Assembly (NCBI GenBank): GCA_964401055.1 | Contig: CAYNWW010000004.1 | Location: 13,390-77,389 of the forward strand | Length of the DNA: 64,000 nt | DNA from: an uncultured Candidatus Saccharibacteria bacterium | GTDB taxonomy: Bacteria > Patescibacteriota > JAUYIX01 > CAYNWW01 | Direction of reading: 5' to 3' | Shown: piece after piece, positions 8,026-57,415 of the stretch | How positions within the stretch are numbered: position 1 is the stretch's first letter | Layout: every line of letters begins with the position of its first letter | Position numbers and translations under genes: made by a program | Notes under the pieces: model-generated | Seen by the model: only the letters and a program-made list of their open reading frames with translations | Told to the model about the DNA's origin: nothing | Databases searched by the model: none

Positions 8026-8290
8026 TGTGGATAACCTGTGGAGAAGTGGTAAAAGATGGGGATAAGTTGGGCAGTTGTGCCCAGAATATCCTCAGGCCGC
8101 TGCGGGACAATACAGCTGCGTCCCTGTTACCCCCAATTCGTCCTCAGATTGTCCGGATGTGAATCCCCGGGTTGTGCCCAGGCTCGATTGGCGGTCAGCA
8201 CACAAAAAAGTGCGTTTTCCCCACAATCCACAGCACTACTCCTATAATAACTACAATTATTTATATATAAGAAAGAAAAAACGCTTAGGG
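8026..8290. promoter_or_regulatory. oriC part 2: DnaA box (TGTGGATAA, 8026-8034) plus AT-rich unwinding-element-like stretch (8243-8280) between dnaA and dnaN
   Basis: Perfect box and a roughly 40-nt AT-rich tract (ctataataactacaattatttatatataagaaagaaaaa) read directly. Confidence 0.5.
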
Positions 8291-9399: not shown

Positions 9400-9450
9400 C
9401 GCGGTGCGTGACGCCGACGTGGCGCGCGTTTGGGGTGCATAACTCTGTGT

Positions 9451-9480
9451 AAAAATACCTCATGATGGGGGTATTTTTTT
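9451..9480. terminator. Bidirectional rho-independent terminator between convergent dnaN and the phosphatase gene
   Basis: AAAAATACC, 9-nt loop, GGTATTTTT: a 9-bp perfect stem flanked by an A-run and a T-run. Confidence 0.5.
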
Positions 9481-9507
9481 ATCCCCACGTTGAGCGGCTT
9501 TTCCCCA

Positions 9508-10143: not shown

Positions 10144-10189
10144 GAGTAGAGAATAACATGCCGCCCCGTGTTCATGGTAAAATAGGTGT

Positions 10190-22163: not shown

Positions 22164-22172
22164 GAACGGAAA

Positions 22173-23717
22173 TTATTCTTCGTGAAATCGGAGCGCTTCT
22201 CGAAACCGGAGAAGCTCAAACAAGCGCAAGCCGGTCCAGCGACCGATCACCAGATTGATTACTACCACGAGCAAGATGATCTCCGGATAGTTGATGACAA
22301 ATGATTGCAGTACGTCCCAGCTCAAAATGTAATAGCTCAATACCGAGAGGAGGACGGTTTCAAGCGATAACATGAGCGCTTCAAACGAACCTTTTTCGAT
22401 TTGCACCGAAATAAATTTTTCCACAATAATAATCAGCAGCAGCATCGGGAAAAATGATGTTGCAACTACCGGCATGTTGAAAAATGCCATTGTCGCGAGT
22501 ACCCCGAGAAGCGAGAGTGCGACCGCGGTGAGCACGAGCGCCATTTTGGGAAAATAGAAGAAATGAAATCGCTTCAAAATAAATCGGACGAGCGTGCCGG
22601 TGCCGAGCACAACCGCGAGAATAATCAATCCAATTTTGATCCCAAGCGCAAGAAATGACAGTGTGATGATCGCAGGGGCATAAATACCAAACGCTTTCAA
22701 GCCAATAATCTGTCGCGCCAACACAATGATTGTGGCAATAATCGGAAAAATGAGAATCAGTGTGATCGTGTTGATGGGAATTCCTTTGTTGACCATGTAG
22801 TTGACCAGGTAGGATAGGAAATTGAGCGGTCCGAGTTTGCCGCCACCGCGCTCGCTATGAATTCCGATCACTGAATATTCAACACTCGCTTTTTGGAGAG
22901 TTTGGGCAAGCGTGCCTCGCTGAGAAATTGTCGCATCACTGATGACGCCCATTGCTTGCGGTCTGGTGAGGATGATGGATTCCGGGCGCAGGAGATCAAA
23001 CGCGGATTGTGCCGTGCGCGCGATGACTCCAAAATTTTGATCAGTGAGAACGATGACTGTTTTGTGCGCAAAATTTAAATCACTGAGGTTGTGTGCGGCT
23101 TGTGCGAATTGGCTCAGGATGTTGAGGCCGGTGTTGCCGGATGTCCAGGTGATAATCGTATCTGCTTTGCGTACAAAATCGGTGTTGGCAAGTAGTATTT
23201 GTGTGAGCTGAGCTTCTTGCAAAAAGTCTCCGTTGCCGCTGCGATCTGCAATGGTGAACAGAAGTCGTCCTTGGCGTGCGCTAAATCGTTCGAATTGTTT
23301 GACCGTTGCAGCGTCGGTAGATGTGTCGGTCACCAAAATGTCGATGTGATCAAAGACCGATACCACAATTTCGTCGTACGAGCTTGTGCCCGCCTGCGTA
23401 TTGACGGTAAATCTGACGGCGTAATCACCTGGTTTTGCGTATTCGTGCGATGCGGTACCGCCAGCTGTGGTGATTTTTGCGCCATCGCCAAAGTCCCAAT
23501 TGTATGTCAGAGGGGAATTGTCCGAATTAATCGACGCCGATGAATCAAAAACTACCGATCTGCCAACGATCGTACTACGATCATCGCCGATTTCTGCATG
23601 TAGTTGGGGAGCCGTAACTTGTGGAGGCGTCGCATCTTGGGCATGCACTGGTTGTGTTGTGAATGAGCCGGCAAAAATTGTTGCGCATATCGTCAATGCC
23701 AGCAAGCGTGTGTTCAT
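22173..23717 (-). CDS. Secreted/membrane protein: signal peptide + PKD domain + ectodomain + C-terminal 7-TM module (7TM-transglutaminase-like receptor class)
   Basis: MNTRLLALTICATIFAGSF signal peptide. PKD motif (LTYNWDFGDGAKITT...HEYAKPGDYAVRF). Seven hydrophobic helices in the last roughly 210 aa. Start taken at MNTRLL (23717), 4 nt after the ruvC stop. Confidence 0.6.
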   Translation of the reverse strand: MNTRLLALTICATIFAGSFTTQPVHAQDATPPQVTAPQLHAEIGDDRSTIVGRSVVFDSSASINSDNSPLTYNWDFGDGAKITTAGGTASHEYAKPGDYAVRFTVNTQAGTSSYDEIVVSVFDHIDILVTDTSTDAATVKQFERFSARQGRLLFTIADRSGNGDFLQEAQLTQILLANTDFVRKADTIITWTSGNTGLNILSQFAQAAHNLSDLNFAHKTVIVLTDQNFGVIARTAQSAFDLLRPESIILTRPQAMGVISDATISQRGTLAQTLQKASVEYSVIGIHSERGGGKLGPLNFLSYLVNYMVNKGIPINTITLILIFPIIATIIVLARQIIGLKAFGIYAPAIITLSFLALGIKIGLIILAVVLGTGTLVRFILKRFHFFYFPKMALVLTAVALSLLGVLATMAFFNMPVVATSFFPMLLLIIIVEKFISVQIEKGSFEALMLSLETVLLSVLSYYILSWDVLQSFVINYPEIILLVVVINLVIGRWTGLRLFELLRFREALRFHEE

Positions 23718-23721
23718 GGTG

Positions 23722-24228
23722 CTAATTAGTGATGAGACTTTGTGAGGCCGCGTGAAGTTTGATGCGGAATGCATGGCAGAGTGCGCCGGCGATTGCATCA
23801 ACCGCGTCGTCCGGCGTGGGTGTGGTGGTGATGCGAAGGGTGAGTTGAGTCATTTTCAAAACTTGAGATTTGGTGGCGCGACCAAAACCGGTGACAGTTT
23901 GCTTGATCTCAAGAGGGGTGTATTCAAAAATAGGAATCGCGCGGGCGGCGATGCGCTCGACGGTGACGCCGCGTGCGTGTGCGACATTGAGTGCGGTGGT
24001 GGTGTTTTGTGCAAAAAATAATTTTTCAATCGAGACAACGTCTGGTCGTGCCGCTTCTAGAATTTCTTCCAAATCTCGTCGGAGAATAGTCAGTCGATGC
24101 ACAAATTCGGTGTTCGCGGGCGTAGTGATAACGCCAAAATCATGCAGCGAGAGCGAGGCGTCCGGCGCCACGTCCACCACGCCAAATCCGGTGATCCCGA
24201 ATCCGGGATCAATTCCCAAAATCCGCAT
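23722..24228 (-). CDS. ruvC: Crossover junction endodeoxyribonuclease RuvC
   Basis: MRILGIDPGFGITGFGVV ... ARPDVVSIEKLFF ... DAVDAIAGALCHAF (catalytic D/E/D/D). Confidence 0.9.
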   Translation of the reverse strand: MRILGIDPGFGITGFGVVDVAPDASLSLHDFGVITTPANTEFVHRLTILRRDLEEILEAARPDVVSIEKLFFAQNTTTALNVAHARGVTVERIAARAIPIFEYTPLEIKQTVTGFGRATKSQVLKMTQLTLRITTTPTPDDAVDAIAGALCHAFRIKLHAASQSLITN

Positions 24229-24940
24229 TGAGGTAGACTTCGGTCATATCATCGTTGTCATCGAGCTGGTTGAGGACGTCAGTGACGGCTTCAACGTCGG
24301 CCGGATTTGTGATGGTAATACGTTCTTTTGGCTTATAAATAATCTGCGCGGATTTGATCTGTGCGCCTCGCGCTTCAAATGCGCGTTTGACCGCAGCGAG
24401 TTCGGTAGGTTTTGTATATGCGACGTATTCGTCTGCGTCTGTTGTCGCATCTTCCGCGCCGCATTCGACAGCGAGAAGCAAAAAATCATCCGCGGTGCCG
24501 GCGGTTGTGGGTGGCATGACAAGCTCGCCCACGATGTCAAACATCCAAGCGACGCTGTTGCGTGCGCCAACCGTGCAGCCCGCGCGGCTCAGGATGTGTT
24601 TGATGTCTGAGTTGGTGCGGTTTTTATTATCTGTGACCGCCTTGGCAATAATTTTTGTGCCAGCCGGTCCGAATATTTCAAATGTCATCTCTTCCAACTC
24701 TTGCGCATCTTTGCCGCCGACGGCTTTTTCGATCGCGCGCTTGATGTTGTCATTGGGCAGATTGCCTTCGCGCGCTTTGTCTACGGCGAGGCGGAGGCGA
24801 AAGTTGGTGTCGGGATCGCCACCGCCGGCGCGTGCAGCCACGGTGATGAGTCGTGAGAGCTTGGTAAAAGACACGCCTTTTTTGGAGTCGGTCGCGGCTT
24901 TCTTATGCTTAATTTGTTTCCATTTGGAATGGCCGGACAT
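24209..24940 (-). CDS. yebC: YebC/PmpR-family DNA-binding transcriptional regulator
   Basis: MSGHSKWKQIKHKKAATDSKKGVSFTKLSRLITVAARAGGGDPDTNFRLRLAVDKAR, canonical YebC. Upstream of ruvC as usual. Confidence 0.9.
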   Translation of the reverse strand: MSGHSKWKQIKHKKAATDSKKGVSFTKLSRLITVAARAGGGDPDTNFRLRLAVDKAREGNLPNDNIKRAIEKAVGGKDAQELEEMTFEIFGPAGTKIIAKAVTDNKNRTNSDIKHILSRAGCTVGARNSVAWMFDIVGELVMPPTTAGTADDFLLLAVECGAEDATTDADEYVAYTKPTELAAVKRAFEARGAQIKSAQIIYKPKERITITNPADVEAVTDVLNQLDDNDDMTEVYLNADFGN

Positions 24941-27526: not shown

Positions 27527-28573
27527 CTACAGCAAGCTTGGATTTTGCATGCGCGCCATGGCGGTTTGGCGCTCAATCAAGCCGCGGCGGTACAAATCGC
27601 GCACCGAGGAGTCCATGGTTTGCATTCCTTCTTTGGCGCTGGTCTGCAAAAAGCTTCGAATCTGGGAGATTTTGTTTTCGCGGATCAGGTTGGCGACGGC
27701 CATGGTGTTGACGAGGATTTCGCGCGCGGCGATGCGGCCGCCGCCGATTTTTGGCAGCAAGGCTTGGGTAATAATTCCACGCAGTGACAATGACAATTGC
27801 AGCCGAATTTGGTTTTGCTGATCCGGCGGAAAAATATCAATAATGCGATCAATAGTTTGTGCGGCGTCGTAGGTGTGCAGCGTCGTCATAACGAGGTGAC
27901 CGGTTTCGGCGAGCGTTAGCGTAGCGGCCGTCGTTTCGAGATCGCGCATTTCGCCGACGAGAATCACGTTGGGGTCTTGGCGCAAGACGTGTTTGAGCGC
28001 GCCATCAAACGTGAGAAAATCCGATCCCAGTTCGCGCTGTTTGATAATGCTTTTATTGTGTCGGTACATAAATTCGACCGGGTCTTCGAGCGTGATGATG
28101 TGCGCGTTGCGTTCGGAATTGATGAGTTCAATCATGGCCGCAAGCGTGGTGGATTTACCGCTGCCGGCAGGCCCGGTGACAAGGATGAGCCCGTGATGCA
28201 TGCGCGCAAATCGGTACGCGATGCTCGGCATGTCGAGATCTTCCATGCGCGGAATGTCGGCAGTGATGATGCGCGCGACGAGTGCGAGCGTGTGGCGTTC
28301 CCACAACATGTTGATGCGGAAACGGCCGACGGATGGAATCTGATACGACAAGTCCAACTCGCGTTCGCGGTCGAGTTGTTTTTGTTGCTGTTCAGACAGA
28401 ATGCTACGGCACATGCTGTCGATATCTTTGGTGCTTAGCGGTGATTCGTACAACGGAATTACTGACAGGACGCCATCTCTGCGCATCATGGGTGGCTTGT
28501 CAAACATTAAATGCACGTCAGATGCGTGGAGACTGCTCGCTTTGGTAAAAATATCGTCGATGGAAAAGCGCAT
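27527..28573 (-). CDS. pilT: Type IV pilus retraction ATPase PilT
   Basis: Walker A GPAGSGKSTT and PilT-type motifs (ITLEDPVEF, HLVMTTLHT, GMQTMDSSV). Confidence 0.9.
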   Translation of the reverse strand: MRFSIDDIFTKASSLHASDVHLMFDKPPMMRRDGVLSVIPLYESPLSTKDIDSMCRSILSEQQQKQLDRERELDLSYQIPSVGRFRINMLWERHTLALVARIITADIPRMEDLDMPSIAYRFARMHHGLILVTGPAGSGKSTTLAAMIELINSERNAHIITLEDPVEFMYRHNKSIIKQRELGSDFLTFDGALKHVLRQDPNVILVGEMRDLETTAATLTLAETGHLVMTTLHTYDAAQTIDRIIDIFPPDQQNQIRLQLSLSLRGIITQALLPKIGGGRIAAREILVNTMAVANLIRENKISQIRSFLQTSAKEGMQTMDSSVRDLYRRGLIERQTAMARMQNPSLL

Positions 28574-28585
28574 GAGCGCGGGATT

Positions 28586-29926
28586 TTATTTTTCTAACGT
28601 ATGTGTTTCTTGGAGGAGCTGAGAGATTCTTTTGATAAATGTTTTGCTGAGATCGATGTCGAGATTGGAAAATTCGGCGCGTTTGGTGAAGCAGATCAGG
28701 ACGCCGCTCTCTTGGTGAATCGGGAAATACGAGATCGAGATGATGGGCTGAGTCAGGTGTTGGAGTTGGATTCCGCTTGATTCTTCTTTGGTGAGGTTGA
28801 CTACTTGAAAGGGGAGACCTCGGGATTGAGCAAGTGAGATATAGGCTGGAAGCTTGGCAAGACCGGGGTCGGATCGACGAATGAGTTTGTTTTTTCCGTG
28901 GAGGAGGAGATGTGTCTGCCCGCGAGCAGATGAGTCCTCAAGTCTGAAACAAGCGAATTCGCCACCCAAAATCATGGTGATTGCTTCAATGATTTGGTAC
29001 ACGCTATCGAGTGAACGGTCTTCGCGATCGGGCATAAGGTTTTCGATGTCGATCACGGATGCGAGCTGACGATTTACTTTGCCTACTTCAATATAGGAAG
29101 TATGAAGTTCGGCGACTTTTTCGTCAAGATTTTTTGCGTATTGATGGAGTTCGCGCTGAAGCGTGACTTCTTTGGTGACGTCGTCAATGACTTGAACCAC
29201 GCCGATTGTGTTGTTGCGGTCGTCTTTGAGCGGGCCGAGACGAATGTGAAAATATTGAATGCCTTTGCGAGTCGATGGGTAGAGTTGGTAGCGAAATGAG
29301 CGCGCCTTGCCGGTGGCGATGACATCGCGAAATCCGTCGCGCACGGCCTTGCTCGCGTTGGGCGCATAGTTTTTGTATAAAATGCGGCCAAGAATTTCTT
29401 CTTTGGGTCGGCCGGAGATGCGCTCGTGCGCCGCATTTATTTTTGTGATGATGCCCATGGTGTCGGTCACCAGAATTCCGGCTGGAGAGCTGTCGATGAT
29501 GCGATCGTTGTATTCTTGCAAATACTGGATCATAGTTTTGAGCTCGGTCAGCTCGGTGATGTCTTGCAGCGAGGCGATCGCGCCAATGATGTCTCCGCGT
29601 TTGTCACGAAGCGGACTGCAGCGGGCATCAAGAAAGCGCGTTTGAGAATTGTGACGAAAGGGTGTTTCTTCGAGAATAGTGGTGCGGCCTTGGGTGAGCG
29701 CGGTGCGGAGTGCTGCGAGGAGTGCGGGTGCTTTGACGTCGAGGCACTGCACGGCCAAGTCCTGGCGCGCAGCTGCATCTTCGATGCCGGTAATGGTCTT
29801 GTATGCCGGATTTGCCTCAATCACCTGCTCTTGTTTGGAAATCACAAGCACGCCCACGAGCAATTGATCCAAAATGCTCTTGTTTAAGCCAGCTAATGAC
29901 GAAAATGTCGTGGCCGGTTGCTTCAT
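28586..29926 (-). CDS. Cytoplasmic multi-PAS sensor protein with a C-terminal GAF-like domain and no output domain
   Basis: Three PAS-like cores (ILDQLLVGVLVISKQEQVIEANPAYKTITG; IIDSSPAGILVTDTMGIITKINAAHERISG; and others). Its first 110 nt overlap the 3' end of the upstream gene in another frame. Confidence 0.6.
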   Translation of the reverse strand: MKQPATTFSSLAGLNKSILDQLLVGVLVISKQEQVIEANPAYKTITGIEDAAARQDLAVQCLDVKAPALLAALRTALTQGRTTILEETPFRHNSQTRFLDARCSPLRDKRGDIIGAIASLQDITELTELKTMIQYLQEYNDRIIDSSPAGILVTDTMGIITKINAAHERISGRPKEEILGRILYKNYAPNASKAVRDGFRDVIATGKARSFRYQLYPSTRKGIQYFHIRLGPLKDDRNNTIGVVQVIDDVTKEVTLQRELHQYAKNLDEKVAELHTSYIEVGKVNRQLASVIDIENLMPDREDRSLDSVYQIIEAITMILGGEFACFRLEDSSARGQTHLLLHGKNKLIRRSDPGLAKLPAYISLAQSRGLPFQVVNLTKEESSGIQLQHLTQPIISISYFPIHQESGVLICFTKRAEFSNLDIDLSKTFIKRISQLLQETHTLEK

Positions 29927-32033
29927 TGCAAGGTGATTGAGGAGTGGTCAGTTGTTGTAGTATATCATGGATTTTGGAGAAAAGTAGGCTTGCGAGCTGC
30001 TTCAGCGCTTGCGGGTAATTGATGCCGGTTGCCACGAGTTTTTCCGGAGTTTGCTTGGTTGTTGCAGGTGCTGCTGCGGTAGTCGCTGTACCAAACGTGA
30101 GGTCGGTCGTGCGTTGCGGGTTGATAATGAATCCTGTGCTATCTTTGGTGAGAATGCCTGTAATACCGATGGGCGTGTGTACCGGGATAGTTTTTGGTGC
30201 GCTCGTGAGGAGGGATTTTTTGATGCGAATTTGTGGCGAGTCGCCATCTGGCTTTATCGTGATGTACGCCGAAGTTTGTTTGACGAATTCGCCCGTGATG
30301 CGGACGAGTGTGTCGAGGTGTGTGTCATCGAGTTGGGCGAATGTAAGGAGTGTTGCCTCGGGTGATGAAGTGCTGTGAGATACGACTTCTATTTTTGTTG
30401 CGGAAAGGGTGACGCCTGAAGCGGAGGGTGAAATTTTGCCGGTCACTTGGATGAGGTCACCGACTGCGAGTGGAGGAAAATCTTTTTTTGATGAAGAAAT
30501 TTTGATACCGGCCTGCGAGTCTTGGATAAAAAATGTGGTCTCGCTCAAAAATCCGGGAAGGGCGGTGACCACGCCGCGCACCGTAACTGTGGTATTTTTT
30601 TGCAGTGCGCGCGCGGCTGCAATGCGTGAGATCACGGTCGGCGCAGCGGCCGCGGGCGTGGATGATCCCGAAGGCGCCGCCGTCTGTGTCTGAGGCTGGG
30701 GCAAGGAAGGCCAATCACTCGTCACTTCTGCGAGTGGACGATTAATGATATTGCTGCTTCCTGGCGTCGGAGTCGTGCTCCAGGCCCACCCTTGCGAAGA
30801 AGCAGCGAATGATTCGCCTCCCTTGCCGCCGGTCCCAATGATGATACGCGAGACGGCCGTGTGATTTGGGTTTTGCAGTATAATTTCGTCGAGCTCGCCT
30901 GTGTTCAAGCCGAGCGTGGCGAGTTTGAAACTCAAGAATTTCCCGGCCGCGATTGTGCTGTGCGCGGGGAGTGTAACTTCTTTTCCCGCGTCTTGATTGC
31001 GCACGATCCAGCCGTCGAGGTCGACGTCACGCGTATCCGTGTTGGCGAATTCGATAAAGTTGGCCGCGGTTGACGGGCCGAGAAAATAGACTTCGTTGAT
31101 TGCCACGTGCGTGGAATACGCTGGCGGCGCATTAATCATGACTGTAATTTGCGCGTCTGTCGCGCCGCCGTTGGTGTCGGTTGCATGGACATGTGCAATG
31201 TACGTGCCGGCGGTCGCGTACGCGTGACTCACCAAAGCACCCTGCGCTTCGCTCGTCACTCCATCGTTTGCGTCAAAATCCCACGAAAAGCTCAGCGCAT
31301 CGCCATCCGGATCAGCGCTCGCGCTCGCGTCAAATTGCACCACTTCACCCACGATGCCTTGCGCATCCGGTTCGACGACGATCGCGGGCGGGTGATTGGT
31401 TTCCGGATTTGCTGCGCCCATGCTTGAGCTTGTTTTGAAAAAGTCCACACTGTCCACGCCGGTATTCTGGACGCTATGGCGCGCCATCACTTCGGTCGTG
31501 ACTGAAGACGCGTCGCCGGTCAGCGCGTTATCGCCGAGCGAGCCGTCATCATACGCGCCAAGCGTGACTTTGTTCATGAGTTTGCCGCCACCACCTTTCG
31601 CTCCATCATAGATTTCAACCAGGACGTCGTTGTTCATGCTGCCGACGGGATTGCCGAGCGTAAGATAGGCGCCCGGCACAAAGTGGGTGATGTCGCCCGC
31701 GGGCTGCTCATTTTTCACCAAATCAGCGGTGATGACCGCATCGTCCACGCCCGAATCTGTCATAATTAAATGCCAGCCGGTGAGGTCGATCACGTGTGTG
31801 GATGTGTTGGTGATTTCGATATATTCGTCAGATGAAGTTACGGCTCCGAGCGGAGTGGCCACGCCGGAAAAGTCGGTGGTGCTCCAATCTTGCTGCGGAT
31901 CGGTACAGATTTCGCTGATCAAGACGTCGCCCGCTACTGCAGGCGGTGCGGCGGCGTGGACTTCGTGAGTGGCGAGTGGCGAGAGGGCAAGAACGAGGCA
32001 GGCGACTGAAATTTTTTGTATGAGTGTGTGCAT
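29817..32033 (-). CDS. Secreted multi-domain protein: lamin-tail domain x2, PKD domain, OB-fold-like domain
   Basis: Signal peptide. LTD motifs (VLISEICTDPQ...EYIEITNTSTHVIDLTGWHL; VAINEVYFLG...FIEFANTDTRDVDLDGWIV). PKD motif (FSWDFDANDG...HAYATAGTYIAHV). OB-like segment (TVTVRGVVTALPGF...FFIQD). Confidence 0.6.
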   Translation of the reverse strand: MHTLIQKISVACLVLALSPLATHEVHAAAPPAVAGDVLISEICTDPQQDWSTTDFSGVATPLGAVTSSDEYIEITNTSTHVIDLTGWHLIMTDSGVDDAVITADLVKNEQPAGDITHFVPGAYLTLGNPVGSMNNDVLVEIYDGAKGGGGKLMNKVTLGAYDDGSLGDNALTGDASSVTTEVMARHSVQNTGVDSVDFFKTSSSMGAANPETNHPPAIVVEPDAQGIVGEVVQFDASASADPDGDALSFSWDFDANDGVTSEAQGALVSHAYATAGTYIAHVHATDTNGGATDAQITVMINAPPAYSTHVAINEVYFLGPSTAANFIEFANTDTRDVDLDGWIVRNQDAGKEVTLPAHSTIAAGKFLSFKLATLGLNTGELDEIILQNPNHTAVSRIIIGTGGKGGESFAASSQGWAWSTTPTPGSSNIINRPLAEVTSDWPSLPQPQTQTAAPSGSSTPAAAAPTVISRIAAARALQKNTTVTVRGVVTALPGFLSETTFFIQDSQAGIKISSSKKDFPPLAVGDLIQVTGKISPSASGVTLSATKIEVVSHSTSSPEATLLTFAQLDDTHLDTLVRITGEFVKQTSAYITIKPDGDSPQIRIKKSLLTSAPKTIPVHTPIGITGILTKDSTGFIINPQRTTDLTFGTATTAAAPATTKQTPEKLVATGINYPQALKQLASLLFSKIHDILQQLTTPQSPCNEATGHDIFVISWLKQEHFGSIARGRACDFQTRAGD

Positions 32034-32138
32034 GGGAGTGAAGTAAATGTATTACATTCACATCCTAGCAACCGCAGTTAAAATTTTTCTGAAAAAAAGA
32101 TTAAAAAAAGTTAAAATCCGTGCGCGCTTGGGGAAATA

Positions 32139-32636
32139 TTGTATACTGTGCATATGAATATACATTTCCGCCTCTGCGCCCCAGCCGATCGCCCAACAGT
32201 CTCAGAATTTATTTTGCAATTGTATCGTGAAGACCTCGACCCCACGTCGCAGCCGATGACACAAGCAAAAATAGAGCGCACGTTTGACTGGCTCGACGCG
32301 CACCCTGGCGCCGGCACCGTGATGGTGTTTGAGCAAGACGCCAAGCTCGTCGGCTACGCGATTCTGATCAACTTTTGGAGCAACGAATACAGTGGAAATG
32401 CGCTCACTATTGATGAGCTTTTTGTAGCGCCGGCATTTCGTAGTAAAGGAATCGCGACGGAATTTATTGAGTACTTGGCGCGCGAACACTACGCTGATGC
32501 GGTTGAGATTCAGCTCGAAGTTGCGCCGCGCAACACTCGCGCTCGCGCGCTGTATGAACGATTGGGATTTCGCTCCGAAGCTCAAGCTGGACAAGGCAGC
32601 GAAAATCAACGCATGATAAAAGAATTACTGGGCTGA
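32139..32636 (+). CDS. GNAT-family N-acetyltransferase (TTG start at 32139, or ATG at 32154)
   Basis: Acetyl-CoA-binding motifs (VGYAILINFW ... ELFVAPAFRSKGIATEFIEYL ... ALYERLGF). Confidence 0.75.
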   Translation: MYTVHMNIHFRLCAPADRPTVSEFILQLYREDLDPTSQPMTQAKIERTFDWLDAHPGAGTVMVFEQDAKLVGYAILINFWSNEYSGNALTIDELFVAPAFRSKGIATEFIEYLAREHYADAVEIQLEVAPRNTRARALYERLGFRSEAQAGQGSENQRMIKELLG

Positions 32637-32999
32637 TTACGCACCGAGCGTTTTTTTGACGTATTCTACGATATCTGTAATCAGGGTATCCGCCTTGATG
32701 AAATATCCTTTTGCGCCAAGCGCGAGTGCTCGATCTTGATCTTCTTTCTGGCCTAGGTTGGATAGCACGACAACAGGAATTTTATTGCCCTGTTCTTTGA
32801 GTTTTGTAAGCAGTTCAAAACCGTCCATATTGGGCATCATAAGATCAAGCAGGATCATGGATATTTTTTCTTTACCTAAAATTGCAAGGGCTTGTTGGCC
32901 ATCTTCTGCAATGCTTGCATTGAAGCCGTTGTGATCCAGCTTAAGCTTGAGTGCTCGGGATAGTGACTTTTCGTCCTCAACAATCAAAACATTGTGCAT
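32637..32999 (-). CDS. Single-domain response regulator (CheY-like REC only)
   Basis: LIVEDE...D, LLDLMMPNMDGFELL, and K in VVVLSNLGQKED. No output domain. Directly downstream of the histidine kinase. Confidence 0.85.
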   Translation of the reverse strand: MHNVLIVEDEKSLSRALKLKLDHNGFNASIAEDGQQALAILGKEKISMILLDLMMPNMDGFELLTKLKEQGNKIPVVVLSNLGQKEDQDRALALGAKGYFIKADTLITDIVEYVKKTLGA

Positions 33000-33007
33000 A
33001 TGGGTAA

Positions 33008-34588
33008 TTAATCTATTCGTTTTTTTCCTGCTCGCGCTATCATCCCTTCTAGAGGCATTGTAACATAAAATGTTGTGCCTGTACCCTCAACGGATTCAAA
33101 CCAAATGTCTCCTCCGGAGTGGTCGAGAATTGATTTTACGATATAAAGTCCTAGGCCCGTACCCTCAATATCAAGTGACTTTACGTTGTCTGCTCTGAAT
33201 AGTTTTGTAAAGATGTGGCCTTGCTGTGCCTGTGGGATTCCATAGCCGGTATCCTCAATAGAAAAGAGGAGAGCATCTTTCATAATTTGATGTCCGGCAA
33301 CTTTTGAGCCACGATGTTTTAGCTCGAGCGCAACAGCAATATGACCGTGGGCAGGTGTATATTTAACCGCATTTGAGATGAGGTTTTGAATGACGATGTA
33401 AGTTAGGTGTGGATCTGCGTTGATTTTGGGTAAATTGTTCTCAAGCACCTGTTGTAAGTTCAAATTTTTTGTTGATATTGTCTGATGCATTTCAGTGCTT
33501 GCTTGTGCTATCAGCTCGCTCAGAAAAATAGGCTCGGGCTCAATCAAAAAGGTGCCCAGTTCCAGACGAGAGACGTTGAGTAACGCCTTAACCAATCCTG
33601 CCATGCGCCTATTATTTGTGTAGATTTCGCGGACGTATTCTTTTTGCTCGTCGGTTATTGCGCCAGCGTCCCCATCAAGCAACATTTCGGCATTCCAGCC
33701 AACTGCCGCAATAGGCATGCGCAATTGATGTGAGGCAATGGAAACGAACTCTGTTTTTGCTCGATCCACATCTTTTTCGTGTGTAATATCTCGTTCGATG
33801 CCGACAAAATATTGAACCTCACCAGCGTCGTTTAGCACAGGCGAGACTGATGCTGAGCTAATGTATTCCCGCCCATTTTTTTTCTTATTTTTTAGTTCGC
33901 CCGAAAAAGATTTTTTATCATATTTGATCGTCTGCCAAAAGTTTTTGTAAAATTCTTTGTCCATGAGACCGCCCCAGAGGTCTGCAGAGCCGGCTTTTTT
34001 GCCGAGTATCTCGTCCGGTGAAAAACCCGTCATGCGCATAACGCCGGCATTTGCATACACAATAATTCCGTCAGGGTCGGTAATGACAACATGATCTGTG
34101 GTGCGCGCAACTGCAAGCTCGAATTTTTTTGCTTCAAGCGAGGCTTTTTTGAAATTTTCCTCTTCGGCTTCGATCTCTTTGACATGTTGTTCAACGCGCT
34201 CTTGAAGTTGGACGCGGTCAGTGACAAGAAAGCGAACTGAAATGTATCGCAAGGGTTTGCCGTGTTCGTCAAGCACGGGCGCGATTGTTGTATCAACCCA
34301 ATAAAATGTCCCGTCTTTCGCGCGATTTTTAAGCTCTCCTCGCCATACTTTTCCGGCAGATATGGTTTTCCAGAGATCATCAAATATGCGCTGATCTTGA
34401 TCGCCTGATTTCAAAATTCGATGATTTTGGCCGATCAACTCCTTGCGTGTATATTTTGAAATCTCAACAAATTTGTCGTTTACGTACTGAATATTCCCAT
34501 CAAGATCAGTCATGGAAATAATGGTTGATTCTTTGATGGCGTTAAAAATTGCACCAAGGTTTGTAAGCTCGAGAGGTAATTTTGTCAT
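33008..34588 (-). CDS. Cytoplasmic PAS-PAS sensor histidine kinase
   Basis: Two PAS cores. HisKA H-box FVSIASHQLRMPIAAV. HATPase_c G-boxes (DTGYGIP; GTGLGLYIVKSILDHSGGDIW). Confidence 0.85.
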   Translation of the reverse strand: MTKLPLELTNLGAIFNAIKESTIISMTDLDGNIQYVNDKFVEISKYTRKELIGQNHRILKSGDQDQRIFDDLWKTISAGKVWRGELKNRAKDGTFYWVDTTIAPVLDEHGKPLRYISVRFLVTDRVQLQERVEQHVKEIEAEEENFKKASLEAKKFELAVARTTDHVVITDPDGIIVYANAGVMRMTGFSPDEILGKKAGSADLWGGLMDKEFYKNFWQTIKYDKKSFSGELKNKKKNGREYISSASVSPVLNDAGEVQYFVGIERDITHEKDVDRAKTEFVSIASHQLRMPIAAVGWNAEMLLDGDAGAITDEQKEYVREIYTNNRRMAGLVKALLNVSRLELGTFLIEPEPIFLSELIAQASTEMHQTISTKNLNLQQVLENNLPKINADPHLTYIVIQNLISNAVKYTPAHGHIAVALELKHRGSKVAGHQIMKDALLFSIEDTGYGIPQAQQGHIFTKLFRADNVKSLDIEGTGLGLYIVKSILDHSGGDIWFESVEGTGTTFYVTMPLEGMIARAGKKRID

Positions 34589-35262
34589 GAACTGTACCCC
34601 GTAAATTGTTCTGTGAATAATTGCTCGCTCGTTACTCCGTTTTTTCTTAGATGTTCGCTGGTTGCAATAACCATGCCTTCAGGACCGGCAATATACCAGT
34701 TCGTATCATACATGTCGTCAGTCGGTACTGCGGTCACGTCATCCGGATCGTAGAAAAAATGTGCCATTCCGTCACATAACGCACGAATCTCTTCGTGATA
34801 CGCAGTTGATTCGCGATTTTTGTTGAAATAATACAGCGCGATGTTGCGAGTGCCGGCGATATGTTTTTCTTGCAAAAGCATGCTCATAAATGGCGTGATC
34901 CCAATTCCGCCGGCAATGCACGCGATTTTTTTATTTGGATCTTCGGGAAGAGTAAAAAATCCTTTTGGCAGAGCGACTTGGATAGTCGATCCGATCGGGA
35001 GTTTGGCGAGCTCTGTTTTGAATGGACTGTTTGACGTGCGATAAGCTGTCTTGACGATCGGCAGTTCAAAAGGCGCTGACGATATGGAAAAATCTCTCCA
35101 GCGCGCTCGCGGTTCAAGCTGTGCAAGCGTTGGGAGCGTGACGGTCATATATTGACCGGCGACAAACGCGACGTCTTTGCTTTGAAGCTGCAGCGCGATT
35201 TCTGTTGTATGTGTCGCAATTTCTTTTTTGGAAACGATGATTGCGTCAATAGAATCTATCAT
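34585..35262 (-). CDS. FAD/NAD(P)-binding oxidoreductase of the ferredoxin-NADP-reductase (FNR-like) family
   Basis: NAD-binding GGIGITPFMSMLL. FAD-binding-like N-terminal half. Its stop overlaps the histidine-kinase start by 4 nt. Start ambiguous (ATG 35262, or TTG 35337). Confidence 0.55.
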   Translation of the reverse strand: MIDSIDAIIVSKKEIATHTTEIALQLQSKDVAFVAGQYMTVTLPTLAQLEPRARWRDFSISSAPFELPIVKTAYRTSNSPFKTELAKLPIGSTIQVALPKGFFTLPEDPNKKIACIAGGIGITPFMSMLLQEKHIAGTRNIALYYFNKNRESTAYHEEIRALCDGMAHFFYDPDDVTAVPTDDMYDTNWYIAGPEGMVIATSEHLRKNGVTSEQLFTEQFTGYSS

Positions 35263-35354
35263 TATTGAATGATAACAAGAACGCGGCCGAAATAAAATGC
35301 CTTGTGCGTTTTGATGAAAAAGAGCGCTATTCCTCAAGGAATAGCGCTCTTGAA

Positions 35355-47840: not shown

Positions 47841-48122
47841 TCAGCCGTTCAAAATGAGCTCAAGGATTTTTTTTGCTTTTTCGTTGTCGAGTTTTTCTTC
47901 GGTGAGGAGTGGGCTAGTGGTGGCAAAGAGATTTATTTCACTGTCAGCTGTGACGCCTTCGGGAAGTTTGGACACCGGCCAGACGATTTCTTGACCATTT
48001 TCAATCCGCACGATTGCCAGATCATTTTTGATCGACATCACGCGAGCGAAGACGCCGTGTGTCGTCGGCTCGGTCTGTTCGGAAGATGCGCGTGTCGTTT
48101 CGGTAGCAAAGGGAGAATTCAT
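47841..48122 (-). CDS. DUF3006-like small protein
   Basis: ARVMSIKNDLAIVRIENGQEIVWPVSKLPEGVTADSEINL resembles the DUF3006 pattern. Confidence 0.35.
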   Translation of the reverse strand: MNSPFATETTRASSEQTEPTTHGVFARVMSIKNDLAIVRIENGQEIVWPVSKLPEGVTADSEINLFATTSPLLTEEKLDNEKAKKILELILNG

Positions 48123-48228: not shown

Positions 48229-48406
48229 CGACTGGATCCCAGGAGGAGCGCCGCGGCCCTAGGTAGCCAACGTCTTCGACGCTCATTCCAGGTGGAATAT
48301 CTCCATAGGTGAGATCGTCCACGTGTTTTTCTTTCCTGACAAAGAATTTTATGTTTGTCAGAACGATTGGTTGGTAGATACAAGCTTTTCCTTCCGCGCA
48401 ATCCAC
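48212..48406 (-). CDS. Candidate small protein (64 aa, GTG start)
   Basis: GGAGG 9 nt upstream of the GTG. Protein-like composition (MDCAEGKACIYQPIVLTNIKFF...). Hairpin/T-run terminator straddles the stop codon. Low confidence. Confidence 0.25.
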   Translation of the reverse strand: MDCAEGKACIYQPIVLTNIKFFVRKEKHVDDLTYGDIPPGMSVEDVGYLGPRRSSWDPVEKVAL

Positions 48407-48433
48407 TTATTGCAACCTCCTGCGAGTTGTTCG

Positions 48434-48442
48434 TGTTATAAT
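48434..48442 (+). promoter_or_regulatory. Extended -10 (TGTTATAAT) 6 nt upstream of the prsW ATG, giving a leaderless mRNA
   Basis: TGn + TATAAT read directly. No SD between it and the ATG at 48449. Confidence 0.4.
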
Positions 48443-48448
48443 CGTATC

Positions 48449-49138
48449 ATGATTCTTCCTATTATCCTCATCGGACTTCTGCCAGGCCTTTTTTGGCTAT
48501 GGTTTTTTTGGTTGAAAGACCGCGAACATCCCGAGCCGCTCAAACTGCTCGCAGCGGTGTTTTTGCTTGGTGCATCAGTCGCGGTTCCGGCCGCGCTGAT
48601 TGAGCTCGGTGCTGACGCCATGTTTCATTTTTCCGATTCGACGCAGACCGGCGGGATTTTGCTCGGCATGCTTTTGGTCGTCGCGCCGGTGGAGGAGTAT
48701 CTCAAATACAAAGTCGTCAAAAAATTTGTGTATGACAAGCGACGGTTTGATGAAGAATTTGACGGGATGATTTATTTGATCGTGGCTGCGCTCGGGTTTG
48801 CCTCATTTGAAAATGTGCTGGCGGTGTTCTCAAGCGGATTTGATACGTTGGCGCTGCGATTTCTTACTGCGACGCTGTTGCATGCGCTTACTGCAGGCGT
48901 GTGTGGATATTTTTTGGGGCTGGCGTATTTTTCCCGTTCGCGTGGACGTCAAAAATCGCTGATCGCGCATGGATTGATCGCGGCGATCGTGATTCACGGT
49001 GTGTACAATTTTATTCTCGCGACTGAAACCGGCCTGACCGTGTGGCTGATTCCGTTTGTGCTGCTGCTGATTTTTGTCATGGTGCGCGAAGGCGTTATAT
49101 TAATAAAACAAGGTGATCGGCGTGAAAAACGTGAGTAA
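48449..49138 (+). CDS. PrsW-family intramembrane metalloprotease
   Basis: EExxK (APVEEYLKYKV), FxxxE (FASFENV), H (LLHALTAGVCGY) and HGxYN (HGVYNFIL). Multi-TM. Confidence 0.7.
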   Translation: MILPIILIGLLPGLFWLWFFWLKDREHPEPLKLLAAVFLLGASVAVPAALIELGADAMFHFSDSTQTGGILLGMLLVVAPVEEYLKYKVVKKFVYDKRRFDEEFDGMIYLIVAALGFASFENVLAVFSSGFDTLALRFLTATLLHALTAGVCGYFLGLAYFSRSRGRQKSLIAHGLIAAIVIHGVYNFILATETGLTVWLIPFVLLLIFVMVREGVILIKQGDRREKRE

Positions 49139-49184
49139 CCTGTGGAAAAACTCGCGCGTGGCGCGATTGGCAGAATGCGCAAAA

Positions 49185-49203
49185 TTGCATATACTATATG
49201 CAA
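49185..49203. promoter_or_regulatory. Perfect palindrome TTGCATATA-C-TATATGCAA upstream of hsp20 (candidate operator)
   Basis: 9-1-9 inverted repeat read directly, 41 nt upstream of the hsp20 ATG. Family of regulator unknown. Confidence 0.35.
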
Positions 49204-49243
49204 TCGCTGTATTTATTTAGAAAAATAAAACTAACCTACGACT

Positions 49244-49828
49244 ATGGGTTTATTCACACGCAACAAGCGCCAAAGTGCTATTGATGAAATGGAGCAAGAT
49301 TTGATCGCGACTGAAGAAGTTGCAGATTTTCAAATCGAAACACAGATGCAAGAGCCGACGATGCCATCGATGAATTTTCAAGAAATCGCGCCTGAGCCAG
49401 CGGTAGCTGCTGCGCCTCAAGTTTCGCAAGCACAAGAAGTGCACACCAGCACGGACTCAAAAGAGTCACAAAATTGGCTCACGGATTACGAAGGCGAAGG
49501 GCAGCTCACCATCGATGTCTATCAGACTGACGATGATATTGTGATCAAGTCGACGATTGCCGGCGTTTCTCCCGAAGATCTCGATGTGTCGATCAATGCT
49601 GATATGCTGACGATCCGCGGCACCCGCAAAAAGGGCGAAATTATCCCAGAAGAAAATTATTTCTACCAAGAATGCTACTGGGGTACCTTCTCTCGCTCGA
49701 TTATTCTTCCGACTGAAGTGCGCGCAGAGAAAATTGATGCATCATTGAAGGACGGCATCCTCACTGTGACCTTGCCAAAGGCGCAAAAAGACAAGACGCG
49801 CAAAATTTTGGTGAAGTCAGCGAAGTAG
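49244..49828 (+). CDS. Hsp20/alpha-crystallin family small heat-shock protein with a long N-terminal extension
   Basis: ACD core (LTIDVYQTDDDIVIKSTIAGVSPEDLDVSINADMLTIRGTRK ... FSRSIILPTEVRAEKIDASLKDGILTVTLPK). Confidence 0.85.
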   Translation: MGLFTRNKRQSAIDEMEQDLIATEEVADFQIETQMQEPTMPSMNFQEIAPEPAVAAAPQVSQAQEVHTSTDSKESQNWLTDYEGEGQLTIDVYQTDDDIVIKSTIAGVSPEDLDVSINADMLTIRGTRKKGEIIPEENYFYQECYWGTFSRSIILPTEVRAEKIDASLKDGILTVTLPKAQKDKTRKILVKSAK

Positions 49829-49846
49829 ATTTCCTCGCAACCATAG

Positions 49847-49880
49847 AAAATGACTCTCGCGAAATGTGAGAGTCATTTTT
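49847..49880 (+). terminator. Rho-independent terminator after hsp20
   Basis: 12-bp perfect stem AAAATGACTCTC / GAGAGTCATTTT with a 9-nt loop, then T-run. Confidence 0.6.
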
Positions 49881-49936
49881 GATGTGATATACTACAGAGC
49901 AAGTTGTATATTGTGAAAAAAATAGTATACTGCAAG

Positions 49937-49963
49937 TTAGCACTCGATATTATTGAGTGCTAA
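49937..49963. promoter_or_regulatory. CIRCE element (TTAGCACTC-N9-GAGTGCTAA), the HrcA-type operator, 30 nt upstream of the Clp ATPase gene
   Basis: Exact match to the CIRCE consensus with a 9-nt spacer, read directly. Confidence 0.65.
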
Positions 49964-49993
49964 CGAAGAAAAAACTAAATACGAGGAGTTTTT

Positions 49994-52771
49994 ATGATTT
50001 GCCAATCTTGTGGTCAGCGTCCGGCATCAGTAAAGATTAAACAAACAATCAATGGTCGCATCAACGAAGTCGGCCTGTGCCACATTTGCGCGGAAGAGCG
50101 TGCGTTTTTTGGGGCGAGTTCTTTGTTTGACGCATTTTTTGGTCGCGGAGCTCTCGGTGGCGCGGCCGGTACTCCGGATGGATTGCAGGGCGGAATGCCC
50201 GGGCAACATCCAGCCGCCGACGGTGGCGCATTTTTCGCGCGCCCAAAACAAGACCACATCAATATCGTTGATTTCTTTTCCGAGCGCGCCAAAAAAGTGG
50301 TATCTGAAAGCGCGAGTGCGGCATCTGCGGTGAAGGCAAAATATATTGATACCGAACACCTGCTACTTGGATTGTTGGAAGAGACCGAAGTCGGGACGAA
50401 AATTTTTGAGCAGCTCGGCGTCAATGTGCCGGAGATGAAAGGCTATATCGAGCAAAATATTCCGCAGGGCGGTAGTGACGATATTCCGGAGCCGGATTTG
50501 TCGGCGCGCGCGAAGCGCGCGCTTGAGCTCGCCTTTCACGAATCGCGTGAAATGGGCCACAAGTATGTCGGCTCTGAGCACATTCTCCTCGGTCTGATCC
50601 GCGAAGGCGAAGGCATGGCTGCACAGATTCTCACCAAATACGGCCTCACCTATCCGCAAGTGCGCGGCGTAGTCATCAACCAAGTGGGCGAGGGCGAACT
50701 CACGAAAAAGCGCAAAACCAATACGCCGACTCTGGACGAATACAGCCAAGACCTCACACAACAAGCGCGCGATGGCAAACTCGATCCGGTGATCGGTCGT
50801 TCGCAAGAAGTGGATCGCGTGATCCAGGTGTTGAGTCGTCGTACAAAAAATAATCCGGTATTGATCGGTGAGCCTGGCGTAGGTAAAACTGCGATCGCCG
50901 AAGGTCTCGCGCAAAAAATCGTCAAAGGTGATGTGCCCGAGACGCTGCGCAACCGTCGCGTGATTTCCCTCGACCTTGGAAGCATGTTGGCTGGCACCAA
51001 ATTCCGCGGCGAATTTGAAAAGCGCTTGAAGAAAATTATGAAAGAAGTGGCGAGCGCCAACCGCGAAGTAGTGTTGTTTTTGGATGAACTCCACACCATC
51101 GTCGGTGCCGGTGCGGCTGAAGGTGCGATCGATGCGTCCAATTTGTTGAAGCCTGCACTCGCCCGCGGCGAACTCCAGGCGATCGGCGCAACCACGCTCA
51201 ACGAATATCGCAAGCACATCGAAAAAGATTCCGCACTCGAGCGCCGCTTCCAGCCCGTCATTGTGGCTGAGCCAAAAGTTGAAGACGCGATCAAAATTCT
51301 TCAGGGTCTCCGCGATCGTTATGAAGCGCATCACAAAGTAAAAATTACCAACGAAGCCATTATCGCATCTGTACATTTGTCAGACCGCTACCTGAAAGAT
51401 CGGTTTTTGCCGGACAAAGCAATCGACCTCATCGACGAAGCCGGTGCCAAAGTGCGCCTGGCAAATTTGAGTATTCCGGAAAAAATTCGTGCGCTTGAAG
51501 ACGAGATCACCAAGATCGACAAAGAGCGTGAAGCCGCAAAACACGCACTCAAGTCCAAGACCAAGGATAAAAAAGTTCGCGAGTTTGATGAGCAGCACGC
51601 GAAGCTGGAAAAAGAACTGCAAGACCTCAATATCGCGTGGCGCAAAGACAAAGGTTCACAAGAGCCGGTCGTGCTTGCGTCCGACATCGAGGAAATTGTT
51701 GCAAAATGGACCGGTATTCCGGTGACGCAGCTTGCGCAAGAAGAAATCACGAAGCTCCTTCAGCTCGAGCAGCGGTTGCATGAGCGGGTAATCGGCCAAG
51801 AAGAAGCGGTCAAAGCTGTGGCCGAAGCTGTCCGCCGCGGTCGTGCCGGCCTCAAAGATCCCAATCGCCCCATCGGTTCGTTTATTTTCCTTGGCCCGAC
51901 CGGCGTGGGCAAAACCGAACTTACGAAGGCACTCGCCGAGCTGCTGTTTGGCGAAGAAGACGCACTTGTCCGCATTGATATGTCCGAATACATGGAACCG
52001 CATTCGATCGCGCGTTTGATCGGTTCGCCGCCGGGCTATGTCGGTCATGAAGAAGCCGGCCAGCTCACGGAAAAAATTCGTCGCAAGCCATACAGCGTGT
52101 TGCTGTTTGATGAAATCGAAAAAGCTCATCCGGACGTGTTCAACTTGTTGCTGCAAATTCTCGACGACGGCCATCTTACTGACGCGCAAGGCCGCAAGAT
52201 AGATTTCAAAAATACGGTTATCATCGCGACGAGCAACATCGGATCGCAGATTATTCAGGACGTGAGCGACAAAAAATTTGGGTTCGCGACAGATGATGAC
52301 GACAAGAAAAAAGAAAAAGCCCCTGAGCACACGCAAAAATTTGTCGACCTCAAAAAAGATCTCATGGTCGAGCTCAAGAAATTTTTCAAACCCGAATTCC
52401 TCAACCGCGTGGACGAGATTATCATCTTCCACTCGCTCGGCAAGAAACATATTTTGCAAATCATCGACATCTTGCTCGACAATGTGCACCAGCTGCTGCA
52501 AGGTCAGCACATCGGCATCAAAGTCACCAAAGCGGTCAAAGAAAAACTGCTCGCCGATGGGTATGATCCGCTCTTTGGCGCGCGCCCGTTGAAACGCGCG
52601 ATCCAGCGCATGATCGAAAACCCGTTGTCATCGCTTTTGCTCGAAGGTAAATTCAGCGCGGGCGATACGGTGTTAGTAGACGTCGGCGAGGATGGCCAGC
52701 TCAAGTTTGAAAAAGGTGCGCCGCAGAAGAAGCTGAGCGTGGAGATCCCCGCTGAAAAATTAGAAGCGTAA
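49994..52771 (+). CDS. Class I Clp/Hsp100 AAA+ chaperone (ClpC-like, two NBDs) with an extra N-terminal C4 zinc-ribbon and a Gly-rich linker
   Basis: N-terminal CQSCG...CHIC. Two Clp_N repeats. NBD1 [13 protein letters not shown] / LFLDELHT. A short, roughly 70-aa middle domain (ClpC-like rather than ClpB). NBD2 [16 protein letters not shown] possible ClpP loop FGF. Confidence 0.85.
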
Positions 52772-52834
52772 GGAAGAGATCGTATTATAAAAAATCACCC
52801 GCAGCCCGCGGGTGATTTTTGTTCGGAGGGATAA

Positions 52835-57022: not shown

Positions 57023-57415
57023 TTATTTTTGCAACACGTCTTTTACTTTGTCTGCCACTTCTTGTGGGGTGAAATGTGCTTTGATTAAATAATCATTAGC
57101 ACCGAGTTCCATGCCGCGTTTGACGTCATTTTCTTGGCCAAGATTGGTGAGCAAGATCACTGGAACTTTGGCGAGGCGAGGATCTTCTTTCATTTTTTTC
57201 AATACTCCAAAGCCATCCATGTTGGGCATGATGATATCGAGAAGTGCGATATCAGGAACTGTTTTTTCTAAAATTTCAACTGCTTTCACGCCATCTTCGG
57301 CATGAACAACTTCAAAACCTTCCATTCCAAATTTGGTTTGATACATTTTGGCGAGTGTGACCTCGTCTTCTGCCAAGAGAATAAGCGGTTTTTTGTCCAT
57401 TTGCGTATCCGGCAT
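57023..57415 (-). CDS. Single-domain response regulator (CheY-like), paralog of the 32637..32999 gene
   Basis: LLAEDE, LLDIIMPNMDGFGVL and LLTNLGQENDVKRGMELGANDYLIKA. No output domain. Confidence 0.85.
   Translation of the reverse strand: MPDTQMDKKPLILLAEDEVTLAKMYQTKFGMEGFEVVHAEDGVKAVEILEKTVPDIALLDIIMPNMDGFGVLKKMKEDPRLAKVPVILLTNLGQENDVKRGMELGANDYLIKAHFTPQEVADKVKDVLQK

Follow-up and report, generated by a model that had tools for sequence, protein, structure and literature searches.

The window analysed here is a 64-kb stretch of DNA (64,000 nucleotides, nt) from an uncultured Candidatus Saccharibacteria bacterium of the Patescibacteria, in which three genes lie in a row. A gene for a PrsW-family intramembrane protease (48323-49138; PF13367, E = 1e-35; NF033739) is followed by hsp20, encoding a small heat-shock protein (sHsp) of 194 residues with an alpha-crystallin domain at residues 93-189 (49244-49828; PF00011, E = 9e-20), and by clp, encoding a 925-residue Hsp100 ATPase (49994-52771) in which an N1-type zinc ribbon and a linker precede a ClpC-type N-domain, AAA1, a short M-domain and AAA2. 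These genes, and all features of the locus that have a direction, lie on the + strand; palindromic elements are given without a strand. The interval 49139-49993 consists of the two intergenic regions flanking hsp20, each of which carries a perfect palindrome, namely a controlling inverted repeat of chaperone expression (CIRCE) before clp and a different, tightly spaced palindrome before hsp20. A sequence-only reading of the locus had taken both for heat-shock-type operators. Here we consider the CIRCE element and its conservation, the nature of the Clp protein and the standing of the hsp20 palindrome.

The CIRCE element, TTAGCACTC-N9-GAGTGCTAA (in full TTAGCACTCGATATTATTGAGTGCTAA), occupies 49937-49963 and agrees with the consensus at 18/18 arm bases, so that the textbook CIRCE described in the sequence-only reading, 30 nt upstream of the clp ATG (49994), is fully borne out. 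An inverted-repeat search widens its arms to 10 bp (49936-49964). Eighteen specified bases are expected by chance about 1e-6 times per 64 kb, and the element is the sole match within the window even with up to three mismatches allowed (0.01 expected). Only 5 nt separate it from the -10 box of the probable main clp promoter, P2, which we read from the sequence as -35 TTGTAT (49904-49909), a 16-nt spacer and -10 TATACT (49926-49931). The -35 box of P2 is poor (3/6 matches) and was not listed by the consensus scan; its -10 box aligns with the TATAAT of the closest relative (locus L161, 81% identity), and the P2-CIRCE geometry is as in the relatives' TTGACA-17-TAnAAT promoters. A possible upstream promoter, P1, has an extended -10 TGATATACT (49885-49893; GTGAGA-16-TATACT with TG in the scan), but the evidence for it is weak, since its -35 overlaps the hsp20 terminator. 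All promoters given here are consensus matches with predicted start sites; taken as such, P2 would put the CIRCE on or across the start of a housekeeping-sigma-type promoter, where an operator is expected.

The loci of close and distant Clp homologues were compared. A metagenome scan with the N-terminal alignment used a generic DTEHLLLGL pattern and returned mostly proteobacterial ClpK or unrelated loci, together with L081 and L113; a contig scan with the whole Clp protein returned mainly Bacillota ClpC, where matches to residues 1-9xx reflect mcsA lying 5' of clpC. A CIRCE with 0-2 mismatches stands directly 5' of the orthologous zinc-ribbon clp in 10 relatives, making 11 lineages with the window, and the Clp proteins of these CIRCE-bearing relatives are 43-63% identical to that of the window. 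The element is perfect in L081, L162, L166, L168 (the closed genome OZ246404.1), L170 and L173 (OZ246411.1), has one mismatch in L165, L167 and L175, and carries in L113 two changes that keep its symmetry (TTAGCAGTC...GACTGCTAA). Each 22-kb relative locus holds one copy, in almost all cases right behind, or overlapping, a TTGACA-17-TAnAAT promoter; in L167, L175 and L170 it overlaps the core promoter. Nine of the 11 lineages were aligned, L173 and L175 being compared by eye, and in those nine 15/18 arm positions are invariant, with the 9-nt spacer and both flanks unconserved. Because the arms are fixed and the spacer and flanks are free to vary before orthologous genes, we regard the CIRCE as an operator under selection; it is not a chance match, and to judge from the aligned sequences it clearly bears the signature of a protein-binding site. 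Rather than being a peculiarity of this genome, the arrangement is characteristic of a large clade of Patescibacteria. A CIRCE before a Clp ATPase had been called unusual, which holds from the viewpoint of the Firmicutes and fails otherwise, since the arrangement is common in this clade and HrcA-controlled promoters in the genome-reduced Mollicutes include those of clpB and lon (PMC5138195, PMC7737663).

The downstream gene encodes a ClpC-like ATPase, as had been proposed. Its Pfam domains run Clp_N (twice), AAA, AAA_lid_9, AAA_2 and ClpB_D2-small, with Walker A motifs GEPGVGKT at residue 292 and GPTGVGKT at residue 634. The best solved relatives are the ClpC proteins of Bacillus subtilis and Staphylococcus aureus (935 bits), and the alignment is unbroken over residues 95-901, which pair with residues 6-798 in S. 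aureus ClpC. Alignments to ClpB are split in two because ClpB has a longer M-domain. The ClpP-docking loop, where B. subtilis ClpC reads VGF, is represented in the alignment by an FGF tripeptide (residues 762-764, 52277-52285); in ClpK this site is deleted. Most of the nearest homologues in the Patescibacteria (P0001-P0046) still carry an xGF tripeptide, which implies selection, and coupling of the protein to ClpP appears likely from its sequence. A second zinc-ribbon subgroup (P0047-P0056, P0063, P0074, P0076-P0078 and others) no longer has the loop; the one locus examined in it (L171) has neither a CIRCE nor an hsp20 neighbour. ClpP-coupled and stand-alone forms of zinc-ribbon Clp both seem to exist in the phylum. 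The UVR motif (PF02151), which is weak and variable, is absent among the best 25 of 36 Pfam matches and from the precomputed list for P0001, which is identical to the window protein.

The N-terminal domain (residues 1-49, 49994-50140) is assigned to the N1 type by homology and fold. It contains two cysteine pairs, C3-x2-C6 and C29-x2-C32, a beta-hairpin (residues 13-28), a helix (residues 30-40) and the conserved motif SLFDAFF (residues 43-49). In the AlphaFold (AF2) model, the predicted local distance difference test (pLDDT) score exceeds 90 over residues 1-30, with an average of 80 for residues 31-40. The domain is followed by a Gly/Pro-rich linker (50141-50260), predicted to be disordered (pLDDT below 50 for residues 50-78) and variable in length and sequence among homologues. 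The extra CxxC...CxxC segment and Gly-rich linker (residues ~50-78) ahead of Clp_N, both claimed earlier, are confirmed by the sequence. In an alignment of 24 Patescibacteria homologues, all four cysteines are invariant. The same start, M-[LI]-C-Q-x-C-x-x-R-P-A...N-G...L-C-x-x-C-A, is found in about 60 among the 120 matches listed; where named, the sources of these 60 or so are Patescibacteria, Parcubacteria, Doudnabacteria and Andersenbacteria. This sharing, together with a Shine-Dalgarno sequence GAGGAG (49983-49988) 5 nt before the ATG that supports 49994 as the true start, rules out the concern that the zinc segment was a product of a mis-called start. Several homologues seem to be without the motif because their gene calls are truncated. 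In P0037 (locus L175), for example, the annotated 849-residue protein extends upstream in frame, restoring a zinc-ribbon start just after the CIRCE (L175:9761-10000). Late starts at an internal Met, with the zinc ribbon cut, were noted in the public gene calls for P0019, P0025, P0030, P0034, P0036, P0037, P0039, P0042, P0043 and P0045.

The zinc ribbon had been likened to that of ClpX or McsA, and only the second likeness stands. It matches McsA (8wtb) with E = 6e-5 as a single sequence and 1.7e-8 as a profile, and the NCBIfam McsA model covers residues 1-37; the profile also matches ClpE (29hb, E = 9.6e-7) and the ClpK/ClpG N1 domain (8p66, E = 7e-3). A ClpX-like zinc domain was rejected, as there was no ClpX chain among the PDB matches, either with the single sequence (E up to 10) or with the profile (E up to 1). 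The best PDB fold match of the N-terminal model is ClpG N1 (8p66_B; 40 columns, root-mean-square deviation 1.9 A, target template-modelling score 0.58). The ClpG N1 domain and the N-terminal domains of ClpE and McsA are homologous Zn2+-coordinating domains, of which ClpG N1 binds aggregates (Katikaridis et al., PMC10641755), and by analogy the domain described here may do the same. In a test for ClpE, two Clp_N repeats were present and the full-length match to ClpE (29hb) began at residue 246. The protein is best described as a ClpC with an aggregate-recognition head of the ClpG/McsA type, and not as a member of the ClpG/ClpK or ClpE families.

The order prsW-hsp20-clp is kept in eight relatives (L161, L162, L165, L166, L167, L168, L173 and L175). 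Between the last two genes lies an intrinsic terminator (49849-49881), a perfect inverted repeat with a stem of 9-10 bp, AATGACTCTC ... GAGAGTCATT, followed by TTTTT; its 9-nt loop exceeds the 8 nt allowed in the terminator scan, which is why it was not listed there. With this hairpin and T-run between them, the two genes form separate transcription units, and the region would hold two independently transcribed stress genes within a conserved prsW-hsp20-clpC module. The predicted hsp20 promoter is of sigma-70 type (49167-49195), with a -35 TTGGCA (49167-49172), a 17-nt spacer and a -10 TATACT (49190-49195), scoring 10/12 in the consensus scan. In L161 the -35 hexamer and the TATACTAT core are kept before hsp20 at equal spacing, and the hsp20 start codon and MGLF N-terminus are also conserved. 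The hsp20 5' untranslated region (UTR) has no significant structure (z = -0.6), and an Rfam search of this leader gave no family at E up to 1 except a chance small-RNA match on the other strand; a ROSE (repression of heat-shock gene expression) element or other RNA thermometer was rejected on these two results. The CIRCE, if transcribed, would form an RNA hairpin of -20 kcal/mol (z = -5.8). We also observed that the hsp20 and clp leaders of L168 (7800-7965 and 9917-10000) contain long AT-rich inverted repeats, e.g. GTAACAAGTAACAGATAACAAA ... TTTGTTACATGTTACTTGTTA, which could form long hairpins in the 5' UTRs and might be RNA thermometers besides the CIRCE.

The palindrome before hsp20 presents a different picture from the CIRCE. 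It was described as TTGCATATA-C-TATATGCAA at 49185-49203 (written whole, TTGCATATACTATATGCAA) and extends to a perfect 10-1-10 palindrome, ATTGCATATA-C-TATATGCAAT, at 49184-49204, a candidate operator lying over the -10 box and predicted start of hsp20, with 40 nt from its end to the hsp20 ATG (49244). The 1-nt centre points to a DNA site rather than a full RNA hairpin, and ten perfect pairs on each side, set on the -10 box and start of a stress gene, are just what a classic repressor site looks like. The ~7 kb of intergenic DNA in the window holds no other tight perfect palindrome (spacer 0-3). The alternative is that it has no regulatory function, being a chance or recent symmetric AT-rich stretch at the -10 box, with hsp20 expression set by promoter strength or other means, and we give this alternative a little less than an even chance. 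The -10 core TATACTATA is by itself nearly symmetric. Dinucleotide shuffles of the intergenic DNA gave 0.037 palindromes with such 10-bp arms, and at least one in 3% of shuffles, a chance level that is unimpressive for a palindrome picked by eye from 64 kb. Furthermore, the palindrome is a single copy in the window and has no counterpart in 2.3 Mb of relative loci at up to four mismatches. It is missing before hsp20 in L161, L162, L165-L168, L173 and L175, and in L161 the -35 box, core and leader are recognisably alike and only the flanking arms of the palindrome differ.

This lack of conservation counts against an operator, and the earlier pairing of two heat-shock-type operators survives only in that both perfect palindromes are present. 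The hsp20 palindrome matches none of what we take to be the consensus sequences of CIRCE, the HspR-associated inverted repeat (HAIR) and the CtsR box, the last two being compared by eye. It occurs once only and is absent before hsp20 in all relatives examined, so that its identification as a heat-shock operator is not upheld. Two further candidates were dropped. A Fur/PerR/Zur-type 7-1-7 box, suggested by the odd spacing, agrees at only 3/7 half-site positions, and a link with the small conserved open reading frame (ORF) 5' of prsW (47841-48122) was rejected, as L161 keeps this ORF without the palindrome. If it is functional, the palindrome would most simply be an operator for a different, lineage-specific repressor, and this part of our model is weak; the case is about even between such an operator and a functionless symmetric sequence.

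A second alternative concerns the Clp protein, which could be a disaggregase that, like ClpG/ClpK, works alone and without ClpP, making the locus a Candidate Phyla Radiation (CPR) counterpart of the sHsp-ClpK heat-resistance module, with substrates refolded instead of degraded. The order N1, Clp_N, AAA1, M and AAA2 is indeed the ClpG/ClpK layout (PMC8129007). The NCBIfam models of ClpG/ClpK (NF033606/NF033607) align end to end from residue 2-3, and the fold match of the N-terminal domain is to ClpG N1. The sHsp gene lies directly upstream, as at proteobacterial clpK (PMC8129007), an arrangement we found at L088, L133 and L146 and also in L001 (94-564), an unrelated low-GC metagenome-assembled genome; pairing of an sHsp with an N1-bearing Hsp100 recurs in very different lineages. 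In addition, the second zinc-ribbon subgroup of the CPR and L001 are without the ClpP loop, like ClpK, and the window contains no clpP. Nevertheless, the two models score only 904 and 903 bits against a cut-off of 1900, the AAA+ core is 56% identical to ClpC versus 48% to ClpK, and ClpK has a much longer C-terminal extension. The FGF lies exactly at the VGF loop of ClpC, where ClpK is deleted, and most of the nearest homologues still carry an xGF. Taken together, these comparisons make a stand-alone disaggregase unlikely.

It is very improbable that the CIRCE works mainly or only as a 5' RNA hairpin affecting mRNA stability or translation, or binds a regulator other than HrcA, so that the lineage need not encode HrcA: a transcript starting at or before 49937 would open with the stable hairpin, the double change in L113 is compensatory and hrcA was not found in the window, but the exact arm sequence and not mere pairing is kept over nine loci, the one-arm changes in L165, L167 and L175 are uncompensated, the overlap with the core promoter in L167, L175 and L170 would leave part of the element untranscribed, and HrcA is the only regulator known for this consensus.

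Collectively, we consider it probable that the locus encodes a ClpC that is repressed through HrcA and CIRCE, targets aggregates without an adaptor and is probably coupled to ClpP, standing beside an independently transcribed hsp20 in a conserved prsW-hsp20-clpC module. HrcA is the likely ligand of the CIRCE because the identity to the consensus is exact and the conservation is operator-like. In the proposed mechanism, clp would be transcribed from a sigma-70-type promoter with its start site on the CIRCE, and an HrcA dimer, held active by GroEL/ES, would sit on the CIRCE and block initiation. Unfolded proteins would titrate the chaperonin, HrcA would be released and clp would be induced; we infer that heat is one such inducer. 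The HrcA regulon of this phylum would then take in a ClpC-type unfoldase, as it does clpB and lon in Mollicutes. At the protein level, the zinc ribbon on its flexible Gly-rich linker would recognise aggregated protein directly, without McsA/McsB or a MecA-type adaptor, the double-ring AAA+ unfoldase would thread this protein, probably into ClpP, and the neighbouring sHsp would keep aggregates tractable.

A number of observations weigh against this interpretation. The CIRCE is absent in L161, the closest relative, although the -10 box there aligns with that of the window, and it is likewise missing from six zinc-ribbon Clp loci that are more distant (L001, L085, L087, L110, L114 and L171). Because L161 keeps the promoter without the CIRCE, the control appears from these comparisons to be dispensable; it is nonetheless widespread in the Patescibacteria clade and the common state there. 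No hrcA was found in the window by Pfam searches of 54 ORFs, comprising all plausible ORFs of at least 250 residues, and the same scans gave no GroEL, DnaK, ClpP, CtsR or McsB. A tblastn search for HrcA had no match in the window or in 165 loci, the probe being a B. subtilis sequence validated against Thermotoga maritima HrcA (1stz, E = 5e-28). There is no second CIRCE in the window, and no groES, dnaK or hrcA gene lies in the window or in the Patescibacteria loci compared. With regard to ClpP, the xGF is degenerate in some CIRCE-bearing relatives (L081 and P0014), and clpP is missing from the window.

The remaining features of the locus and window are as follows. A strong bidirectional intrinsic terminator, AAAAATCACCCGC-AGCCC-GCGGGTGATTTTT, follows clp at 52790-52822. 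A GC-rich hairpin, TCGCGC-GTG-GCGCGA, lies right after the prsW stop (49152-49166); the scan lists it only as a minus-strand terminator, on the side of the T-run, and no converging gene is found there; it may be e.g. a prsW terminator without a T-run. Elsewhere, dnaA, dnaN and a recF-like SMC_N ATPase gene stand in a row (6443-11395), and the window therefore probably includes the region of the chromosomal replication origin. A perfect 14-2-14 palindrome, AGAGCGCTATTCCT-CA-AGGAATAGCGCTCT, with A-run and T-run flanks (35321-35350) lies at the 5' edge of the ORF 34585-35337 (-); we take it for a probable bidirectional terminator, and its position hints that the ORF is over-extended at its TTG start. 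A fusion of ATP-grasp (ATPgrasp_ST) and MATCAP-like carboxypeptidase adjoins a membrane protein with PKD and 7TM_transglut domains (19776-23801 and 29817-32033); the ATPgrasp_ST/7TM_transglut pair is also found near clp in L167, L173 and L175 and looks like a conserved peptide-modification module. Several PAS proteins, a PAS histidine kinase and two stand-alone receiver proteins without a DNA-binding output are encoded at 27527-34588 and 57023-57415. No DNA-binding transcription factor was detected in the window besides a YebC/TACO1-family protein (24209-24940).

In Firmicutes, the class III stress system comprises the repressor CtsR, the adaptor McsA/McsB and ClpC. A bolder proposal is that the Patescibacteria have merged such a system into one polypeptide and one repressor, that is an adaptor-free 'degrading disaggregase', with a zinc module of the McsA/ClpG type on a ClpP-coupled ClpC, in the HrcA/CIRCE regulon, and with the hsp20 palindrome serving a second, lineage-specific stress repressor. 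We offer this only tentatively, as we think it on the whole doubtful. If it were true, one chaperonin-titrated switch would govern both the refolding and the removal of damaged protein in minimal cells.

Neither the operator nor its regulatory logic nor the zinc domain is new, and nothing is overturned by our findings. What appears not to have been described previously is the N1 head on a ClpC that keeps the ClpP loop, under a CIRCE, together with its distribution across the phylum; in the literature we found no published analysis of HrcA/CIRCE in CPR, Patescibacteria or Saccharibacteria. Much of bacterial diversity belongs to the Patescibacteria, whose gene regulation is almost uncharted, and the locus provides a concrete piece of a stress circuit, with a recognisable operator, a promoter type (TTGACA-17-TAnAAT) and a target. 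For the Hsp100 field, the locus unites an aggregate sensor of the ClpG type with a ClpC in which the ClpP loop persists, whereas this loop is gone from a sister subgroup; a review (PMC8129007) poses as an open question whether the disaggregase of a cell can be a ClpC coupled to ClpP. A practical by-product is that several public annotations begin the gene too late and so hide the zinc domain.

Comparison with known systems places the locus between several of them. The class I regulon of CIRCE and HrcA (dnaK and groESL in B. subtilis; dnaK, clpB and lon in Mollicutes) uses exactly the same consensus, TTAGCACTC-N9-GAGTGCTAA, set at or just past the -10 box and start of a vegetative-type promoter that drives a gene for protein quality control, and in Mollicutes an Hsp100 ATPase is likewise among the targets (PMC5138195, PMC7737663). 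The present case differs in its phylum, in that hrcA was not seen in the window, and in its target, which is not clpB, lon, groESL or dnaK but a ClpC-type protein in which a zinc-ribbon head is combined with a ClpP loop.

With the ClpC proteins (B. subtilis, S. aureus, Mycobacterium tuberculosis ClpC1), the protein shares the two Clp_N repeats, AAA1, the short M-domain, AAA2 and D2-small, as well as xGF at the ClpP loop, and its 56% identity, to a Bacillaceae ClpC (Cytobacillus, L005), is continuous. It differs from them by ~90 extra N-terminal residues of zinc ribbon and linker, by having no Pfam UVR recorded, a motif listed for many Bacillota ClpC matches, and by having a CIRCE instead of CtsR control, with no ctsR-mcsA-mcsB operon upstream. 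ClpG/ClpK of the locus of heat resistance share the order N1 zinc, N2 Clp_N, AAA1, M and AAA2, the N1 fold and the upstream sHsp gene, but have only 48% identity, no ClpP loop and a second ligand pair of CxxH instead of CxxC; the C-terminal extension is short here. With McsA and ClpE, the zinc domain has its N-terminal motif in common. McsA, however, is a separate protein of 185 residues that acts with the arginine kinase McsB, and ClpE carries its zinc domain without Clp_N repeats, whereas here the module is fused ahead of a complete ClpC N-domain.

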